Source of the DNA: a virus
Taxonomy: Duplodnaviria; Heunggongvirae; Uroviricota; Caudoviricetes
DNA: 20,485 bases
Virus record (IMG/VR): IMGVR_UViG_2568526635_000006
Location: 1 to 20,485 of that record
Reading direction: 5' to 3' (one strand)
Below the pieces are notes generated by a model that saw only the letters and a program-made list of their open reading frames with translations, did no database searches and was not told the DNA's origin. Below, piece by piece: positions 8,426-20,188 of this stretch. Position 1 is the first letter of the stretch. Every line of letters begins with the position of its first letter. A program made the translations under genes and the position numbers.

Positions 8426-11400
8426 CTATATTTTTCCGCCTACGCCTTTAAACTTCTCAATAAACGAGACGATTTTCTGGAAAACTGCCTGTTTTTTCGT
8501 TTTATATTGCGGATTTAACGGACTAAGTTTTGGTAATGTTTCGTTTAATTCTGTGCCATTTTCGGTGGCATATTCGCGTTTTAAAGACGTGCGAATATAG
8601 CGTTTTGCTGCATCTTCATTGAGATTTTCTTCTTTTATCAATGCTTCTGCTTCACGTTGCTGTTCGCGTTGAGCAAACGTAAAGAATGCGTCAATGATGC
8701 TGGCTTTGTCCGGTAAATCATCCAGGTTCGTTTGCTGAATAAAATCGACCACCAGGCCCTCTTTAGCACGGTTCCCTAGGCTTGAACGAATTAAGCGTTT
8801 GACCTCTTCGATCATTTCGCCCTTGCCTTTATTTTGTCTGTTGTGTTCGAAAATCAGTCCAAGGATATAATCCAGGTTTATTTCCTGAGACTTCAGCAAA
8901 TCGACCTCAAAAACTACGTCATCCCAGTCAGTGGTTGATTTCTCTTTTTTCTCAGCTTCTTTCTCACGGCGCCGCCAGTCGCGAATATCGTTATAGGCAG
9001 AACGATAATCCTGAATCTTGCGATCAGCAGGGAGACGAATTGTTTGCAATTCAGCGAACTTTTCATTATCCACATAATGTTCTGCTTTGAATTTTTCTAC
9101 CGCAACAGGATCGCTAAGATCGATTTGTTGCAGGGCTTTTAGCGTGGCAAATTCATCATAGTTTTGCAGGATGTTCTCGGCACGCAGGTATTCGCCAAAC
9201 AGTTTAACGAAGTCTTTCTTCTCTTTTTCACTTTCAATACTGGTAGGGTCAGGGAACCGTTGTTCCAGTTCTGAAACTACTGTCATGAAGCCGCGTTTAG
9301 CTTCACCAGTAGCAGCATCAGTAAAGCCTTCCATATACTCTGTATAACTCTTTTCTAATACCACATTTTTGGTGTTTTTGTCACCAAACAGCGTTATGGC
9401 ATCAATAGTTGAGCGTTCCAGATCCCGGAACGTGACGATATTACCGAAGGTTTTAGTCGAGTCATAAATGCGGTTGGTGCGGGAGAATGCCTGCATCAGG
9501 CCGTGAAAACGCAAGTTTTTATCGACGAATAGCGTGTTTAATGTTGGAGCATCGAAGCCGGTTAAAAACATTCCCACGACAATTAACAGATCGATATCCT
9601 GATTTTTAACCCGTTGGGCTAAATCACGATAGTAGTTCTGAAAACCGTTACTGTCGGTGCTAAAGTTAGTTTTAAAATGGCTGTTATATTCACGAATTGC
9701 AGCGTCCAGAAACTCTTTAGCACTGCTGTCCATTGCGCTGGTATCAAAAGTTTCATCGGAAATTTCACCAATGGCATTTTGTTCTTCATTGGCGGCAAAG
9801 GAGAAGATTGTCGCAATACGCAGCGGTTTATAGGTAGCCGATTTATTAGCGGCTTCTTCTTGTAACCGTTTAAACGTCGCATAATAGGCTTTCGCGGCAT
9901 CCACGCTGCTCACTGCCAACATAGCATTAAAACCTTTTGAGCCAGGGAAGGTACGGTGGGTTTTCTGGCGGAAATTATTCAGGATATATTGCGTGATTTC
10001 CTGAATACGCATGGGATGAAGAAACGCCTGCTGATTTTCAGCCGCACTCAGTTTTTTCTCGTCAGTTTCTGTCTCTAAAGACTTAAACTGTGGCCGCACA
10101 TCGTTGTAGTCCACCTTGAATTTGAGCACTTTTTCGTCACGAATCGCATCGGTAATTACATACGAATGCAATTCACGACCAAATACGCTGGCGGTCGTTT
10201 CTGAGCCTAAGGCATTTTCCGGGAAAATAGGGGTGCCGGTAAAACCAAACTGATAATAGCGTTTGAATTTCTTCTTCAGGTTTTTCTGCGCTTCTCCAAA
10301 CTGGCTGCGGTGGCATTCATCAAATATAAACACCACTTGCTGATTGTATACAGGCAGGTCGCTTTCTGCTTTCATCAGGTTATTAAGTTTCTGAATAGTG
10401 GTGACGATAATTTTGTTATCGTCCTTATCCAGATTTCGTTTAAGACCTGCGGTATTTTCCGAGCCGTTGACGCTGTCTGGCGAAAAACGCTGATATTCCT
10501 TCATGGTCTGGTAATCGAGGTCTTTCCTGTCGACCACGAAGAAGACTTTATCAATAAAGTCCAGTTCAGTTGCCAGACGCGCGGCTTTAAAGCTGGTCAG
10601 TGTTTTACCGGAACCAGTGGTGTGCCAGATAAAGCCACCGCTTTCGGGGTTAGACCAGTTTTTCGCTTTATAGGAGCTGTTGATTTTCCATAAGATCCGT
10701 TCGGTAGCTGCAATCTGGTACGGTCGCATCACCAGTAGCGTCTGACTACTGTCAAACACGCTGTAGTTCACCAGAACATTAAGCAGGGTATGTTTCTGGA
10801 AAAAGGTAGCGGTAAAGTCTTTGAGGTCTTTAATCAGCGTGTTGTCTGATTTCGCCCAGTTCATGGTGAAGTCAAAACTGTTTTTATCGCGCTTTGTCGT
10901 GTTGGCAAAGTAACGGGTATCGGTGCCGTTGGAAATGACAAACAGTTGCAGATACTTAAACAGAGAATTTTCGCTGTTAAAACTCTCTTTGCTGTAACGA
11001 TGTATCTGGTTAAAGGCCTCACGAATCGCCACGCCGCGCTTTTTCAGTTCGATTTGTACCAGCGGTAAGCCATTAACCAGGATCGTGACGTCATAACGGT
11101 TAGCATGAGAACCCGTCTGTTCAAACTGCTGGATAATCTGCACCTTGTTGCGCATGAGATTCTTTTTATCTATCAAATAGATGTTCTCAAGACGCTCGTC
11201 ATCAAAAATAAAGTCGCAAATATAGTCGATATGGATTTTACGGGTCTTATCCAGGATGCCATCGCTCGGGTTATCCAGATACTGCTCCGTGAAACGCCGC
11301 CATTCGCTGTCATTAAACACCACACCATTGAGGTTCTGAAGCTGTTCCCGAACGTTGGCCAGCATCGCCGACTGAGATTTTACGGAAATAAATTCATAGC

Positions 11401-11542
11401 CCTGATTCCGCAGATCCTGAATCAGTTCACGTTCCAGGTCCGATTCGCTCTGGTAGCTGTCGCCTGTTTGCTCGGCTTTGATGTACTTATCAAGAACGAT
11501 AAAGTTATTGGATTCAGCAATGGTGTGTGTTTGATGAGTCAT
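8426..11542 (-). CDS. hsdR: Type I restriction enzyme R subunit (HsdR), 1038 aa
   Basis: SF2 helicase motif [14 protein letters not shown] and motif [12 protein letters not shown]; N-terminal PD-(D/E)xK-like nuclease region ([18 protein letters not shown]). ATG preceded by AAAGGA. Confidence 0.92.
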
Positions 11543-11663
11543 AGCGCATCCTTTGTGCCGTCTGGCAAGGGCCGGAAGGGCTTTAAGGGCGACTTCCGGC
11601 GTGTAAAAAATAGTCTCTATATAGACCGGATGTTAAGGTGATCCGGTCGGTAGCAATGGTCAA
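11543..11663 (-). promoter_or_regulatory. hsdS-hsdR intergenic region with two stem-loops; probable separate hsdR promoter and partial terminator
   Basis: Inverted repeats GACCGGAT-n9-ATCCGGTC (11624..11648) and GCCGGAAG-n14-CTTCCGGC (11571..11600), with a T-run on the minus strand between them. Confidence 0.35.
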
Positions 11664-12932
11664 TTAGTTACTGATAGTTTCAGGTTTGGGAAAACTGAAC
11701 AGTAAATCACGATAGTACTCGTATTGTTTCTGGCGCAACTCGATTTCACGCGGAAGACCTTCGGTGATGGAATTGGTCAAAGCATCAAATTTATCCAGTA
11801 ATTTCACTATTTTTTGTTGTTCAACTAGCGATCTTTCAGGAGAATCAGGAAATGGTACTGGTATCATAAGTTTTCTTAAGTTATCATTATAAAGTCTTTT
11901 AATAGTTCCACCTTCAGATATTCCCCATTTTGCTATTTTATAGAAATAGAATAAATATTTATTTAAAACTATTTTTTCATTATTTTCAATCCAGACAATA
12001 TTGCTATCCTGGAAATATGATTCCCTACCATCAAATATAACAGTCCTGCCGATGGTCCCACTGGCAGAAATCAATACTTCGCCAACTTTAGGATAACTAT
12101 ATTTTTCTTTAAATTCATTAAATAGTTTTCTAGATATATAGGAATCGGGTTCCTTACCAAATGTCCCAATTTTATAAAATGGAATCTCTCCCTCAGAAGA
12201 TGTTTGTGATTTTAGGATTCGTTTACACATACGAACTTCACCAATTTCCCCCAAAGCTTTCCACTCAACCTCACCCTCTTTAAAACTCAACAACTGGTCG
12301 CGATAGTAGTTGTATTGTTTTTTACGCATGCTAAGCTCAGCGGTAAGCTCAGCGGTAAGTGCAGTAAATTTGTCCAGAATCCGAACGATTTCAGACTGGA
12401 TGGCTAGGGACTTTTCCGGGTTGTCCGGGCAGGGTAATGGGATTTTGAATCTTCCCATTACGGCTGAGTTCAAGTTGTTAATGGTTGAGCTATTCAACAT
12501 TTCATCAAGATATTTTTGGAAAATATCACTTGTTAAAACGTGAAATAAATAACGTGGATTTAATTTTTCATCGCATCTGACGACCCCCATAAATCCGCCA
12601 AAGTAGTAGTCAATATCAGATTCTATGTAAGCAACTTTACCGACATGTTCACGGCTACCACTTGCTGCGCTAATTAGAATGTCGTTCTTATATAGCTTTT
12701 GCGAACTCTTTACTTTGGTGTCGAACCTCACCACCTTGACATCATTTAAATTTAAACAATTATTAGACAGCGTGATATTGTTAGCGCGAAGCACTTTATA
12801 GCCTTGACCATCCGCGCTTTCACTCGATTTGCTATAAATTAAACCACGTACATATTTTGCGACTTCTCCGAGAGTCTTCCACTCAACCTCAACCCCATCC
12901 AGCAATTTTTCCAGATAACTCATCTCGCTCAT
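11664..12932 (-). CDS. hsdS: Type I restriction-modification specificity subunit (HsdS), 422 aa, EcoR124 (type IC)-like
   Basis: Two AT-rich variable target-recognition domains separated by a conserved central region ending [26 protein letters not shown], with a C-terminal repeat [16 protein letters not shown]. Start overlaps the hsdM stop (ATGA). Confidence 0.9.
12333..12368 (-). repeat. Tandem 12-bp codon repeat encoding TAEL-TAEL, with a degenerate third unit TAL, in the HsdS central conserved region
   Basis: Plus strand AAGCTCAGCGGT x2 (12333..12356) followed by AAGTGCAGTAAA. Minus-strand codons ACC GCT GAG CTT x2. Confidence 0.8.
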
Positions 12933-14491
12933 TTCTGCACCTCGCAGCCTTCAATTTCAGCCACAATCGCATCAATATCTTTACGCAACTGGTCGATTTT
13001 GCTGACCGTGGTTTTCAGCTCAGCATTCAGCTCAGCGATATCGATAATTTCGCGAGTATCTTTCGCTTCCACATAGCTGCTCACCGACAGGTTATAGTCA
13101 TTCGCGACAACAGTCTCAAACGCAACAGATTTCGCCAGATGAGCAACATCTTCCTTGCTGGCAAATACCTGCATAATCTGTTCGATATGAGCATCGGTCA
13201 GAATGTTGTTGTTAGTCTCTTTTTTGAACAGTTCGCTGGCATCAATAAACTGAACTTTGGTATCCGTTTTATGTTTAGACAGCACCAGAATATTGACGGC
13301 AATAGTGGTGCCAAAGAACAGATTCGGTGCCAGTGAAATCACGGTTTCGACATAGTTATTGTCGACCAGATACTGACGGATTTTCTGCTCCGCGCCGCCA
13401 CGGTAAAAAATGCCTGGGAAGCAGACAATCGCAGCGCGACCTTTGGCCGAAAGATAGTTCAGCGCATGTAATACAAACGCAAAGTCAGCTTTGGATTTGG
13501 GGGCCAGAACGCCAGCCGGGGCAAAACGTTCATCGTTAATCAGCGTCGGGTCATCGCTGCCAATCCATTTCACCGAATACGGCGGGTTAGAAACGATGGC
13601 GTCAAACGGTTTTTCATCTCTGAAGTGCGGCTCAGTCAGTGTATTACCCAGCTTGATATCAAACTTGTCGTAGTTGATATTGTGCAAAAACATGTTCATA
13701 CGCGCCAGGTTATAGGTCGTATGGTTGATTTCCTGACCGAAAAAGCCTTCTTCGATGATGTGGTTATCAAACTGTTTTTTCGCCTGCAACAACAGTGAGC
13801 CGGAACCCGCTGCCGGGTCGTAGATTTTGTTAACGCTGGTCTGCCCGTGCATAGCCAGTTGTGCAATCAGCTTGGAGACGTGCTGCGGTGTAAAGAACTC
13901 ACCGCCTGACTTACCGGCATTTGCCGCATAGTTAGAAATCAGGAACTCATAGGCATCACCGAACAGGTCAATCTGATGTTCGTTGAAGTCACCAAGTTTT
14001 AACCCTTCAACCCCTTTCAGAACCGCAGCCAGGCGGGCATTTTTATCTTTAACGGTGTTACCCAGGCGGTTACTGGTGGTATCGAAATCAGCAAACAAAC
14101 CTTTGATGTCAGCTTCTGAAGGATAACCGTAAGCAGAACTTTCGATAGCAACGAAGATGCTGTTTAAATCTGCATTCAGTCTGTCATTAGTATTTGCTTT
14201 CGCAGCTACGTTGCAGAAAAGCTGACTGGGGTAGATGAAGTAGCCTTTAGTTTTGATGGCATCGTCTTTAATGTCATCAGTAATTACGCTGTCATCCAGT
14301 TTCGCATAACAGATACTGTCATCACCGGCTTCAATATAACTGGAAAAATTTTCGCTGATAAAACGGTAGAAAAGTGCGCCCAGAACGTATTGCTTAAAAT
14401 CCCATCCATCGACCGAACCCCTGACATCGTTAGCAATTTGCCAGATTTGACGATGAAGCTCTGCACGTTGTTGAATACTTGTCATTTTCAT
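12929..14491 (-). CDS. hsdM: Type I restriction-modification N6-adenine DNA methyltransferase (HsdM), 520 aa
   Basis: AdoMet-binding motif [11 protein letters not shown] and catalytic motif IV NPPYS; typical HsdM N-terminus. First gene of the minus-strand hsdMSR operon. Confidence 0.92.
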
Positions 14492-14630
14492 CCACTTATT
14501 TCAGGCTTATGTAATTGGCGGTGATTCTACAGCAACTTGGATGCTTTAGCAGTTCGGACATTAGGTAACGAATGACCTGCCTAGAGGTTTGTTAAGACGC
14601 AAAGTGCTGGTGCTTTATGCCTGTGAAGTT

Positions 14631-14660
14631 TATAATTGTGTACACATAACGAGTACACGA
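14631..14660 (+). promoter_or_regulatory. phd-doc promoter -10 (TATAAT) with palindromic autoregulatory operator half-sites
   Basis: TATAAT at 14631..14636, then TGTGTACACA and GAGTACAC palindromes immediately upstream of the RBS GAGGTG. Consistent with Phd/Doc autoregulation at palindromic operators. Confidence 0.5.
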
Positions 14661-14667
14661 GGTGTTT

Positions 14668-14889
14668 ATGCAATCCATTAACTTCCGTACCGCGCGCGGC
14701 AACCTTTCTGAAGTGCTCAACAATGTTGAAGCCGGGGAAGAGGTTGAAATCACCCGCAGAGGCCGTGAGCCAGCAGTAATTGTCAGCAAGGCTACTTTTG
14801 AAGCCTACAAAAAAGCGGCGCTGGATGCTGAATTTGCATCCCTGTTTGACACCCTGGACTCCACCAACAAGGAACTGGTTAACCGATAA
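14668..14889 (+). CDS. phd: Phd antitoxin (Phd/YefM family), 73 aa
   Basis: Product [49 protein letters not shown]... matches my recollection of phage P1 Phd essentially residue for residue. The track ORF begins 6 nt upstream at a GTG. Stop overlaps the doc start (TAATG). Confidence 0.9.
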
Positions 14890-15269
14890 TGAGGCATATA
14901 TCACCGGAAGAACTTATTGCGCTTCATGATGCGAATATAAACCGCTACGGCGGCCTGCCGGGAATGTCAGATCCGGGTAGGGCAGAGGCCATTATCGGGA
15001 GAGTTCAGGCCAGAGTTGCCTACGAAGATATCACCGACCTTTTCGAAGTCTCCGCCACCTACCTGGTGGCTACTGCGAGAGGGCATATATTCAATGATGC
15101 CAATAAGCGTACCGCGCTAAACAGTGCGCTGCTATTTCTACGCCGTAACGGGGTGCAGGTATTTGATTCACCAGAACTGGCAGACCTTACCGTAGGGGCT
15201 GCGACCGGAGAGATATCTGTATCTTCTGTCGCCGACACGTTACGTAGATTGTATGGTTCTGCGGAGTAG
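14889..15269 (+). CDS. doc: Doc toxin (Fic-fold kinase, death on curing), 126 aa
   Basis: Fic/Doc motif [12 protein letters not shown]; length and sequence match recalled P1 Doc. Confidence 0.9.
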
Positions 15270-15273
15270 ATTA

Positions 15274-15453
15274 ATGGCACGTAAATACAACAAATTGTCC
15301 CGTGAAGCGTTAAAGATGCTTCTTGATGGCGTGAGTCGCCGCGAGGTAAAGCAATACCTGGTTGGTAAGCAAATTGGTGCCAGGACAGCTATTGCTGTGT
15401 TATGCCGTCAGGAAATGGTTGTGCTTAAACAGAGAATGCCGGGCAGCAGATAA
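15274..15453 (+). CDS. Small hypothetical protein (59 aa from ATG 15274; the track ORF starts at 15253)
   Basis: ATG 7 nt after GGAG, just after the doc stop; basic product. By position it may correspond to one of the P1 post-doc (pdc) genes. Confidence 0.4.
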   Translation: MARKYNKLSREALKMLLDGVSRREVKQYLVGKQIGARTAIAVLCRQEMVVLKQRMPGSR

Positions 15454-15480
15454 AGCCCAATCAGTGATTAAAGGTGTGAT

Positions 15481-16524
15481 GTGAAAGCCGTAATTACTCC
15501 CTTTGTACAGAAAGAGCTTGGCCTCGCCACGTTCAAAGTGGATCAGGAGGTCAGAAAGCTGGTGGAGGCTGGCCGTAAATTTATTATGGAGCCGGTGCCG
15601 CGTGAGTTAATCGAGCACATGGACGACGGCCTCGTTGTTTCCGAGCAAACTATGGCAACAAATGAGGCGTTGCAGCCGTTTTTTAACAGCGATGAACTGT
15701 TTCGCCGTATTGGTGGAATTGACGCGCTGGTGGCGTGGTTGCGTAGGAAAGAGGGTCAATGCCAGGCCGCAGATCGTAGTTGGTGTGACAACCATATTGT
15801 CCACGCTGAACGAGACAATAGCGCGGTGTTGTTGTGCTGGCATCACGATAACCATTATCGGATGCGTGGTTTTAATGAGCTGAAAGAAACGCTGCACAAT
15901 AATCGCGTTAACTGGATACTGGATGTCGCCCGTCAGGAAATGGGCCTTTCAAATAGCCATGATTTAAGTATTCAGGAGCTGTGCTGGTGGGCTTTCATGC
16001 GCAACATGATGCACCTGATGCCGGAAGAAGTCTGCCGCATATCAATAAATAAGATGAAGGCTACTCCGCAGGATAGCGGACCTCTGAAAGAGGCGGATAT
16101 TCGCCCGTATGACGATCGCGCTACAGCATATGTTCAGATGATGGAAGAACGCGCCGCGCCGATGCGTGCAAAAGTATGCCCTGTGGATGTTGACTCCGAC
16201 CCAGGTATGGCGCATTTCAAGATACCAAAACTTCAATCGCTAAAATTGCCCGAGTACATGGACTTTGTGGCTTCCCGTCCATGCTGTGGCTGTGGAGCTG
16301 CGGGAGCTGGCGCTCACATTACGCCTTATATCGTTCGTCATAGTCGATTATGCGCGCATGACATTTATGCTATTCCTCTGTGCCAGTCATGCCAGCGTGA
16401 TATTGAGCGTGACCGCGATAATTGGGAGAAGACGCACGGTAGGCTGGCGATGCATCAACGATTGTTCTTTGATTACGCGCTTGGAGTCGGCGCTATCACA
16501 AGTCATTCGTCGAGTGTTAGATAA
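15481..16524 (+). CDS. Hypothetical 347-aa protein with two Cys/His-rich clusters (putative zinc-binding, possibly nuclease-like)
   Basis: GTG start after AAGGTG. Clusters [15 protein letters not shown]...CWHHDNH and [13 protein letters not shown]...RHSRLCAH...CQSCQ. May correspond to a P1 pdc gene by position. Confidence 0.55.
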
Positions 16525-16525
16525 A

Positions 16526-16567
16526 ATTGCTCTAATGTATTGCTATTTCTTTAATCTAGGGTATTAT
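16526..16567 (+). promoter_or_regulatory. C1-operator-like site overlapping a sigma70-type promoter upstream of the lpa-like gene
   Basis: ATTGCTCTAATGTATTG (14 of 17 to consensus) at 16526..16542 overlaps the -35 TTGCTA (16540..16545); 16-bp spacer; -10 TATTAT (16562..16567). In P1, gene 10 (lpa) is known to be C1-controlled. Confidence 0.5.
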
Positions 16568-16612: not shown

Positions 16613-17065
16613 ATGTTACTTAACTGGCAGGGACGCCACTTCATGGAAATAAATCACTCACGAATAACATCGTACGAGATTGCGGATTACATGATCCGCA
16701 CTAAATCTCTTCTATCAGCGAAAGAACTCGCAGCAATTCTTGAAAAGGAATACCCGCATCTGGATGTCGATAAGCGCGATGTTTATCTGCGCTTAAAGGC
16801 TATCGCTGTGTCTAAGTATTCGTCTGTTTTGATTGATGACAGTACACGCCCACGTAGATTTCAGATCCACTCTCTGAATCCTGAATTCTTTCGCCGCAGT
16901 CGCGCTCCGCGCCGGTTTGATGAAAAACTCCAGAACGAACTCTATATGACGCAGGACGAAAAGGAACGCCGGGAGCACCAGCCTTGGGTAATGGCGCGTC
17001 AACTTTTCAATAAGGTGGTCCGTCAGCACCGTCATTACGGTAATGCCACATCCGCACGTATCTGA
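16613..17065 (+). CDS. lpa: Putative late-promoter activator (Lpa / gp10-like), about 140 to 150 aa
   Basis: Assigned by synteny (directly upstream of pacA, downstream of phd-doc) and by the C1-operator-controlled promoter, not by recognised sequence. Alternative start ATG 16643. Confidence 0.5.
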   Translation: MLLNWQGRHFMEINHSRITSYEIADYMIRTKSLLSAKELAAILEKEYPHLDVDKRDVYLRLKAIAVSKYSSVLIDDSTRPRRFQIHSLNPEFFRRSRAPRRFDEKLQNELYMTQDEKERREHQPWVMARQLFNKVVRQHRHYGNATSARI

Positions 17066-19849: not shown

Positions 19850-19975
19850 TGTTTTTTAACTACCGATGTTACATTGAACCTGACCTCTTGCGCCTTGAGG
19901 CATTTTCGGTTTATGCTTATCAGGCACCTCATTAAAACGGGTGCCGGGATTGAGACCCCGGATAATGCAAAAGGC

Positions 19976-20008
19976 GACACAGACGCCAAAAGCGTCTTTT
20001 TTTGTGTC
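19976..20008 (+). terminator. Rho-independent terminator after pacB
   Basis: GACGC-caaaa-GCGTC followed by TTTTTTT, nested inside an outer GACACA...TGTGTC stem. Confidence 0.55.
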
Positions 20009-20188
20009 ATGCCATCGCACAGCCATACGTAGCGTTTAGCTCAGAGATCAATGGTAGTGCTGGCTGGGCTGCCGAAAGGCAGGCCGGTTCCCTTTTGCGC
20101 CGGTAGTCTCAACCCAGTCAGTGCTACCGCCATTGAGATTGAGACCTCACGCGGTAGCTCCTTAAATTAGCAAAAGGAGGCTGCCATT

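Follow-up and report, generated by a model that had tools for sequence, protein, structure and literature searches.

The genes that follow the phd-doc addiction module of a P1-like phage-plasmid: pdcA, pdcB and a degenerated HNH-type active site

What are the two genes that directly follow the toxin gene doc in a P1-like phage-plasmid, and do they work with the phd-doc addiction module? The question arises from a stretch of 20,485 nucleotides (nt), termed the window, which is positions 1 to 20,485 of IMG/VR virus record IMGVR_UViG_2568526635_000006. A sequence-only reading of the window described a small basic protein and a Cys/His-rich protein of 347 amino acids (aa) encoded directly downstream of doc. 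It held both genes to be uncharacterised, suggested zinc binding and possibly an HNH-like or zinc-ribbon nuclease fold for the larger protein, and asked whether the two act together with phd-doc. The window belongs to a P1-like phage-plasmid, and the two genes are its pdcA and pdcB, which are already named. They exist as described, with both open reading frames (ORFs) on the + strand and all of the quoted Cys/His motifs present, and they are indeed uncharacterised: the P1 GenBank record AF234172 marks both pdcA (AAQ14076) and pdcB (AAQ14077) as ‘unknown protein function’. The RefSeq product name for pdcB is ‘HNH endonuclease’.

Between 14500 and 17200, the window has 97–98.7% nucleotide identity to P1, P7, SJ46, RCS47, and other Punavirus genomes, and between 14640 and 16524 it is 100% identical to the E. 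coli plasmid RCS54_p. The gene order phd-doc-pdcA-pdcB-lpa-pacA is common to P1 and the window, with 98.5% nucleotide identity in this region, and the P7 counterparts of pdcA and pdcB are the genes fdc and upf95.7. The findings below concern genes that were known before, and their new points are modest: a degenerated active site in the phage-plasmid clade of PdcB proteins, a conserved second, putative zinc module, and a split of the locus into phd-doc-pdcA and pdcB-lpa. P1 is a workhorse phage, and resistance genes are spread by P1-like phage-plasmids. Among the most conserved genes of these elements is pdcB, one of the 21 kept in all P1-like phage-plasmids surveyed (PMC9603915), and it is used as a marker for the polymerase chain reaction. 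No major concept is changed here; the gain is mainly a sharper annotation.

The explanation that is favoured as a whole, with a probability of roughly 0.55, is that PdcB is a non-catalytic, zinc-scaffolded binder outside the addiction system, that pdcA and pdcB probably form the tail of the operon read from the phd-doc promoter Pphd, and that PdcA may be a passenger. The coding regions and protein segments in question are the following.

15274..15453, + strand: pdcA, encoding a 59-aa basic protein (ORF, P1 annotation, PHROG 3345).
15481..16524, + strand: pdcB, encoding a 347-aa protein of the YdfU/DUF968 family, with a GTG start (Pfam, PHROG, P1 annotation).
15649..15960, + strand: predicted N-terminal zinc module of PdcB, residues about 57–160 (model, conservation, PHROG 11007).
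15961..16491, + strand: Pfam DUF968 match, PdcB residues 161–337 (Pfam hidden Markov model, HMM).
16276..16485, + strand: degenerate His-Me (HNH) finger, PdcB residues 266–335 (alignments, model).

In phage-plasmids, PdcB represents the two-domain, YdfU-type DUF968 family, in which an N-terminal Cys/His module is followed by a C-terminal, zinc-stabilised His-Me finger. Its 347 residues include 12 Cys (3.5%) and 16 His (4.6%), and its motifs lie at residue 94 (the N-terminal Cys/His motif), 119 (CWHH), 267 (PCCGCG), 291 (CAH), and 301 (CQSC). Pfam DUF968 (PF06147) matches residues 161–337 over its full 171-position profile, with an E-value (E) of 4.7e-50 and 170.4 bits against a cut-off of 27.8. 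PHROG 96 (‘HNH endonuclease’) spans the whole protein, and PHROG 11007 spans residues 2–134. DUF968, DUF1364 (YbcO, PDB 3G27), and YdfU make up group 7 of the His-Me (HNH) finger superfamily, whose genes neighbour RusA, Q, and antirepressor genes and for which a NinG-like role has been proposed (PMC5714182). A zinc-finger HNH motif has been described within the C-terminal part of DUF968 (PMC4118853). When 1.84 billion representative proteins were searched exhaustively with a profile, only 203 relatives were found at E<=0.001, and about 45 of these align end to end. With YdfU of the E. coli Qin prophage (P76162), to which the P1 record notes 25% identity, and with full-length DUF968 prophage proteins, PdcB shares two domains, a length of about 320–350 aa, and an N-terminal C..C/H..CWxH/C module.

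The fold was examined in an AlphaFold2 model built on a shallow alignment of 16 sequences, which came from a word-indexed homologue search that reached 22 proteins. In this model there is a beta-beta-alpha unit at each of the two Cys/His clusters, at residues 106–129 and 281–310, and the C-terminal unit consists of strands 281–286 and 295–300 and helix 302–310. The profile and structure predictions that had been proposed as a check on the Cys-rich domains give a DUF968 match at the C-terminal cluster and a beta-beta-alpha unit at both clusters. In a comparison with viral models (BFVD), small DUF968 proteins are the two best matches to the PdcB model (E 0.01, probability 1.0). Neither NCBIfam nor PADLOC gave anything meaningful for PdcA or PdcB, so a known defence system is unsupported for either protein.

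It is in the C-terminal domain that the phage-plasmid proteins depart from their prophage relatives. For this comparison 61 homologues were aligned, and residues were counted in 34 prophage representatives and 16 phage-plasmid sequences. The prophage proteins follow the pattern C-x2-C...D-P-H-H-(I/L)-I-G-H-G...G-G-M-G-T-K-A-H-D...I-P-L-C-R-x-C-H-x-x-L-H, while the P1-type proteins follow C-C-G-C-G...(T/S)-P-(Y/F)-(I/L/M)-V...L-C-A-H-D...P-L-C-x-x-C-Q-x-x-I-x. In other words, YdfU-type proteins keep DPHH...CH..LH together with a longer GxG..GGMGTK loop, whereas PdcB has Y-I...CQ..IE and an inter-strand loop that is shorter by 5 residues (hhalign) or 7 residues (MAFFT). Position 284 is His in 34/34 prophage sequences versus 0/16 phage-plasmid sequences, which have I, L, or M there and R in one case. 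Position 305 is His in 33/34 versus 0/16 (Gln in 14, otherwise Tyr or Ala), and position 309 is likewise His in 33/34 versus 0/16 (A, E, S, R, or V). C268, C271, C301, and C304, together with the pair H293-D294, are kept in 16/16 phage-plasmid PdcBs.

The meaning of these positions comes from known structures. When the profile of the prophage C-terminal domain is compared with PDB sequences, YbcO is the best match (E 0.056), followed by IscB HNH domains (E 1.5–2). In that alignment DPHH is paired with the catalytic His of HNH domains, D294 with their Asn, and CH..LH with the helix histidines. An hhalign comparison of the P1-clade profile with the prophage profile (99.7% probability) places Y283/I284, Q305, and E309 of PdcB on those histidines; the P1-clade profile itself finds nothing among PDB sequences. 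YbcO, encoded by the DLP12 prophage, resembles PdcB in belonging to His-Me group 7, but it is a single domain of 96 residues, and the match to it is marginal and comes from the canonical homologues rather than from PdcB itself. The PdcB model and sequence have the beta-beta-alpha core and the zinc knuckle of a His-Me finger, with one CxxC before strand 1 and another at the N-terminus of the helix. They lack a catalytic His at the C-terminal end of strand 1, as well as a His/Asn in the first turn of the helix with a polar ligand at +4. With these two defining catalytic features missing, PdcB is by sequence a member of DUF968 but probably no working HNH nuclease. The zinc/HNH proposal of the sequence-only reading thus holds for fold and family (DUF968, His-Me group 7, beta-beta-alpha model) and is not supported for a working nuclease, as the catalytic His and the two helix His are replaced in every P1-type PdcB. 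The lost histidines also suggest that the database label ‘HNH endonuclease’ is misleading for P1-type proteins.

A second, N-terminal Cys/His module, which on sequence grounds is a putative zinc site, is conserved across the whole family. Its candidate ligands are C94 (15760–15762), C102 (15784–15786), C119 (15835–15837), and H122 (15844–15846), and in the model it forms a beta hairpin (106–119) followed by a helix (120–129). Among 50 sequences, C94 and C119 never vary, position 102 is C or H in all but one, which has N, and only H or C occurs at position 122. C/H interchange of this kind, at positions 102 and 122, is what a structural zinc site typically shows. In the same sequences, position 121 is variable, D123 is nearly invariant, and H105 is not conserved. 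The view that the clusters are metal-ligand-type motifs is thus borne out, with key Cys/His residues invariant or C/H-interchanged across the family, although within the N-terminal motif as originally quoted only C94, C102, C119, and H122 are kept, and H105 and H121 are not. The module has no conserved His at the end of its first strand and therefore does not look catalytic.

Against PDB sequences, the profile of the N-terminal domain gives no significant match; the zinc-binding N-domain of DnaI comes closest, at E 0.43. This match (2K7R, the helicase-interaction domain of a helicase loader) covers PdcB residues 50–104, or about 15628–15792 of the window, and is a lead rather than evidence. 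Separately, one prophage carries its PdcB homologue directly after helicase and primase genes. Proteins in which an N-terminal YdfU-like part is fused to tail-fibre, tail-tip, portal, or glycine-rich segments were set aside as uninformative about domain architecture, since they share one E. coli N-terminal part and have arbitrary junctions. They are probably products of prophage decay or deletion, or assembly chimeras, of E. coli cryptic prophages.

Laboratory work on P1 shows pdcB to be dispensable. Under pdcB knock-down by CRISPR interference, the efficiency of plating is 0.68, and deletion data list both pdcA and pdcB as non-essential (PMC10695390). P1 carrying pdcB::kan is viable and forms stable lysogens (PMC10067587, PMC10999674). 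Among 41 alleles from P1-like contigs, pdcB nevertheless has a ratio of nonsynonymous to synonymous polymorphism (pN/pS) of 0.11 with a clear third-position excess, close to the 0.07–0.08 of phd, doc, lpa, and pacA. PdcB is maintained by selection though it is dispensable in the laboratory.

The gene neighbourhoods show with which partners each gene is inherited. The genes flanking pdcA and pdcB are the following.

14668..14889, + strand: phd, antitoxin gene (Pfam PhdYeFM_antitox, P1 annotation).
14889..15269, + strand: doc, toxin gene (Pfam Fic/DOC, P1 annotation).
16613..17065, + strand: lpa, late promoter activator gene, the conserved downstream neighbour of pdcB (Pfam BPP1_LPA, synteny).

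All close relatives of P1 have the order phd-doc-pdcA-pdcB-lpa-pacA. Elements whose PdcB is 67–68% identical (Klebsiella-type) or 37–38% identical have pdcB-lpa, and then pacA where the contig reaches that far. In those divergent P1-like elements there is no phd, doc, or pdcA within 4–5 kb upstream of pdcB; the ORFs that do lie upstream were considered as PdcA homologues and rejected as unrelated. In lambdoid prophages, PdcB homologues at 28–33% identity are followed by a gene for a Q antiterminator in 20/22 cases, drawn from three Pfam families of Q. Like pdcB in P1, the YdfU-type prophage genes thus lie directly upstream of a late regulator. Their upstream neighbours include antirepressors, KilA-N proteins, and RusA, the last in 3/27 upstream ORFs scanned. 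This is the same slot, between replication genes and Q, that is occupied by the nin-region recombination endonucleases lambda Rap/NinG and RusA; the likeness is one of position, and PdcB differs in being without the nuclease active site.

The addiction module also occurs without these genes. Copies of phd-doc at 91–93% identity have neither pdcA nor pdcB alongside, and pdcA is joined to phd-doc only among copies that are at least 97% identical. Phage D6 shares exactly phd-doc-pdcA with the window (14631–15455, 97.5%) and nothing beyond, and in several hundred IncF plasmids the shared stretch is hsdRSM-phd-doc-pdcA together with the first 92 pdcB codons. Since pdcB is kept without phd-doc, and phd-doc is kept without pdcB, pdcB is probably no partner of phd-doc, and its conserved neighbour is the late regulator. 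In short, pdcB is inherited with lpa rather than with the addiction module, and pdcA travels with phd-doc. The proposed partnership with phd-doc is accordingly not supported for pdcB, as pdcB-lpa persists without phd, doc, and pdcA, and phd-doc also occurs without pdcB or pdcA. For pdcA it is at most a possibility, favoured by co-travel in D6 and IncF plasmids and by the lack of a separating signal, and weakened by loose constraint on the gene and by its absence beside diverged phd-doc copies. Separating the lpa-linked pdcB from phd-doc-pdcA clarifies the contents of an addiction cassette that has also spread to IncF plasmids.

The IncF sharing suggests that these plasmids captured the hsdRSM-phd-doc-pdcA block from a P1-like phage-plasmid of this type, and their retention of pdcA could reflect either cassette linkage or plain hitch-hiking. 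The window is collinear with IncF conjugative plasmids (e.g., NZ_CP020496.1) from 10643 to 15758, at 93–98% identity. About a third of 1246 plasmid matches stop at about 15755–15758, just before the Cys94 codon.

How the two genes are transcribed is suggested by the signals around them, which are the following.

14608..14636, + strand: Pphd, sigma-70 promoter of the phd-doc operon (transferred from the P1 GenBank annotation; the window sequence is identical).
16526–16542, + strand: C1 operator Olpa (P1 annotation, operator search).
16540–16567, + strand: promoter Plpa (P1 annotation, promoter scan).

In P1, no promoter other than Pphd is annotated upstream of pdcA and pdcB until Plpa is reached. 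After pdcB, the P1 record continues with Olpa, Plpa, lpa, pacA, and pacB, and Olpa/Plpa directly after the pdcB stop codon is the start of a separate lpa transcription unit. Scans from Pphd (14608–14636) to Olpa (16526) found no sigma-70-like promoter, terminator-like hairpin, P1 late-promoter box, or C1 operator. The gaps are also short, with 4 nt from the doc stop to the pdcA start and 27 nt from pdcA to pdcB. Together, the missing signals and short gaps make co-transcription of pdcA and pdcB from Pphd likely, and in P1 proper both genes are probably read from this promoter as the tail of the phd-doc operon. The sequence-only reading had named an independent promoter and terminator separating the genes from doc, along with housekeeping homology, as what would speak against a link to the module; that combination was not found, nor any such signal between doc and the two genes. 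In a recent preprint, pdcB transcripts are seen in lytic growth, and pdcB and lpa are both transiently raised at 10 min in hfq-mutant infections.

The smaller gene, pdcA, encodes a protein with a pI of 11.0 and 14 K+R versus 4 D+E. The original P1 record starts it at an upstream ATG (15253), which gives 66 aa, while RefSeq and most database entries use the ATG at 15274, which gives 59 aa. A Shine-Dalgarno sequence, GGAG, lies at 15263–15266 within the end of doc, 7 nt before the latter ATG, and PHROG 3345, which has 59 positions, matches residues 8–66 of the 66-aa version. The start is most plausibly ATG 15274. PdcA is modelled as a three-helix bundle with a predicted local distance difference test score (pLDDT) of 83.8. 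Foldseek comparison of this model with the PDB returns eL36, the I-beta subdomain of Mu transposase, and a small terminase at query-normalised TM (template modelling) scores of 0.6–0.67, but with E>1, and there is no Pfam match. These structural neighbours bind nucleic acid. No homologues below about 75% identity were found, and those found are all in Escherichia and Salmonella. The gene has a pN/pS of 0.31 and a flat codon-position pattern (segregating sites 7/11/8), with no third-position excess, and some alleles are frameshifted. Several rare database alleles are truncated or, after about residue 40, shift into an overlapping +1-frame ORF at 15362–15484, which fits weak constraint on the C-terminal third of the protein. 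PdcA is a basic, lineage-restricted protein of three predicted helices that is weakly constrained and moves along with phd-doc, and it may be a small DNA/RNA-binding passenger.

How, then, might PdcB work? Members of the YdfU-type family are found directly upstream of Q in lambda-type prophages and directly upstream of lpa in three P1-like lineages, and the P1-type clade has kept both predicted zinc sites and is under purifying selection but has replaced all three active-site histidines. With zinc sites and selection kept and histidines lost, PdcB would most likely be a zinc-scaffolded protein that binds nucleic acid or a partner protein without catalysis. Its role would be an accessory one in DNA metabolism or in the timing of the life cycle, not needed in the laboratory, and it would probably be neither an HNH endonuclease nor a component of phd-doc addiction.

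Several observations weigh against this explanation. The 16 phage-plasmid sequences come from no more than three lineages: the P1 type, the P0020/L058 type (37–38% identity), and the D6-like type (38%). H293, invariant in the P1 clade, might take part in an unusual catalytic arrangement, and Gln305 might still hold a metal. The model of the whole protein is mediocre, with a mean pLDDT of 63.6 and values below 50 at residues 287–293; residues 61–150 are the best modelled (block pLDDT 80–91), and values are 73–81 from there to residue 180. Foldseek comparison of the whole PdcB model with the PDB gives no significant match, with HNH proteins among the top hits at E>1. Finally, the D6-like lineage breaks the adjacency of pdcB and lpa, as its homologue is located upstream of hot-humD-phd-doc. 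In the D6-like phage-plasmid pHX138.33gt_1 (NZ_CP091837.1), the order is metallophosphoesterase, DUF968, a 134-aa ORF, hot, humD, phd, and doc, without pdcA. Its DUF968 protein has 332 aa, is 38% identical to PdcB, and also has a degenerate active site. The ORF that follows it was considered as Lpa and rejected, as it is not an Lpa homologue.

One competing explanation is that PdcB is a working HNH endonuclease with a structure-specific role in recombination or repair, as in lambda Rap/NinG or RusA. The DUF968 and PHROG 96 matches and the RefSeq name agree with this, as do the occurrence of RusA among the family's neighbours, a position that mirrors the nin region, and the retention of the zinc scaffold and the H293-D294 pair. 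Yet all three His-Me histidines are substituted, by Y/F, I/L/M, Q, or a variable residue (A/E/S/R/V), and the inter-strand loop is shortened. Nor is there a conserved Tyr that could serve as a PacI-type substitute, as Y283 is F in 2/16 sequences and Y296 is F or W in others. An active nuclease is thus improbable. Somewhat less credence still is given to the idea that PdcB-type proteins help control the late-gene switch by acting on how the adjacent late regulator is expressed or functions, this regulator being Lpa in P1-like elements and Q in lambdoid prophages. The family does sit directly upstream of a late regulator whatever the family of that regulator (Q from three Pfam families in 20/22 cases, Lpa in three P1-like lineages), and the joint transient rise of pdcB and lpa in hfq-mutant infections is compatible with such a role. 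There is also a precedent for an inactive His-Me finger as a DNA-binding transcriptional activator, in Smad; the Smad MH1 and Enpp nuclease-like domains have kept binding while inactive, but they are eukaryotic and unrelated in sequence to PdcB, so the likeness is an analogy only. On the other side, lpa is essential in P1 while pdcB knock-down hardly alters plating (PMC10695390). Moreover, lpa has a C1-controlled promoter of its own, located behind the pdcB stop codon. Modular gene order can account for the adjacency, which the D6-like lineage has lost, and direct interaction with four unrelated regulators is unlikely.

A further explanation, and a very doubtful one, is that pdcA and/or pdcB are functional accessories of phd-doc, for instance a third-component regulator or an effector helper. 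All of these genes are on the same strand, a mere 4 nt separate doc from pdcA, whose ribosome-binding site lies within doc, no promoter or terminator pattern was seen between the genes, and pdcA stays with phd-doc in D6 and in hundreds of IncF plasmids. But divergent P1-like elements and prophages keep pdcB in the absence of phd-doc, and phd-doc copies at 91–93% identity do without both genes. The IncF copies hold only the 92-codon remnant of pdcB, so the retention of pdcA can be hitch-hiking, and the pN/pS of pdcA, its lack of a third-position excess, and its frameshifted alleles count against the idea as well. The phd and doc genes alone suffice for P1 addiction, and pdcB::kan lysogens are stable. 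Returning to the non-catalytic binder, a more specific and rather speculative version, which is thought unlikely as stated, is that the phage-plasmid PdcBs (P1, D6-like, and related) are a pseudo-nuclease branch of YdfU/DUF968, with a His-Me finger still under purifying selection after the loss of catalysis, and re-used as a zinc-scaffolded DNA or protein binder tied to the plasmid-prophage lifestyle. Such a branch might, for example, tune the lysogeny-to-late switch at lpa or act as a decoy against a nuclease-based system of the host or a rival. No paper found on pdcB, DUF968, or YdfU describes such a pseudo-nuclease branch.

Outside the locus itself, the window differs from P1 upstream of phd, where it has a type I hsdRSM system while P1 has humD; homology to P1 begins at 14592. 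The restriction-modification system is complete, lies at 8426–14491 on the − strand, and points away from phd, with hsdR encoding 1038 aa, hsdS 422 aa, and hsdM 520 aa. The target-recognition regions of hsdS are unlike those of the IncF copy, with homology gaps between 11874 and 12871. At the other end of the window, Rfam identifies isrK at 19924–20002 (+, 59 bits), directly after pacB, and a C4 antisense RNA at 20047–20134 (+, 75 bits). In the identical plasmid RCS54_p, icd and ant follow C4. The C4 RNA and the icd and ant genes next to it in RCS54_p point to an immI-type c4-icd-ant module in the place where P1 has c1.

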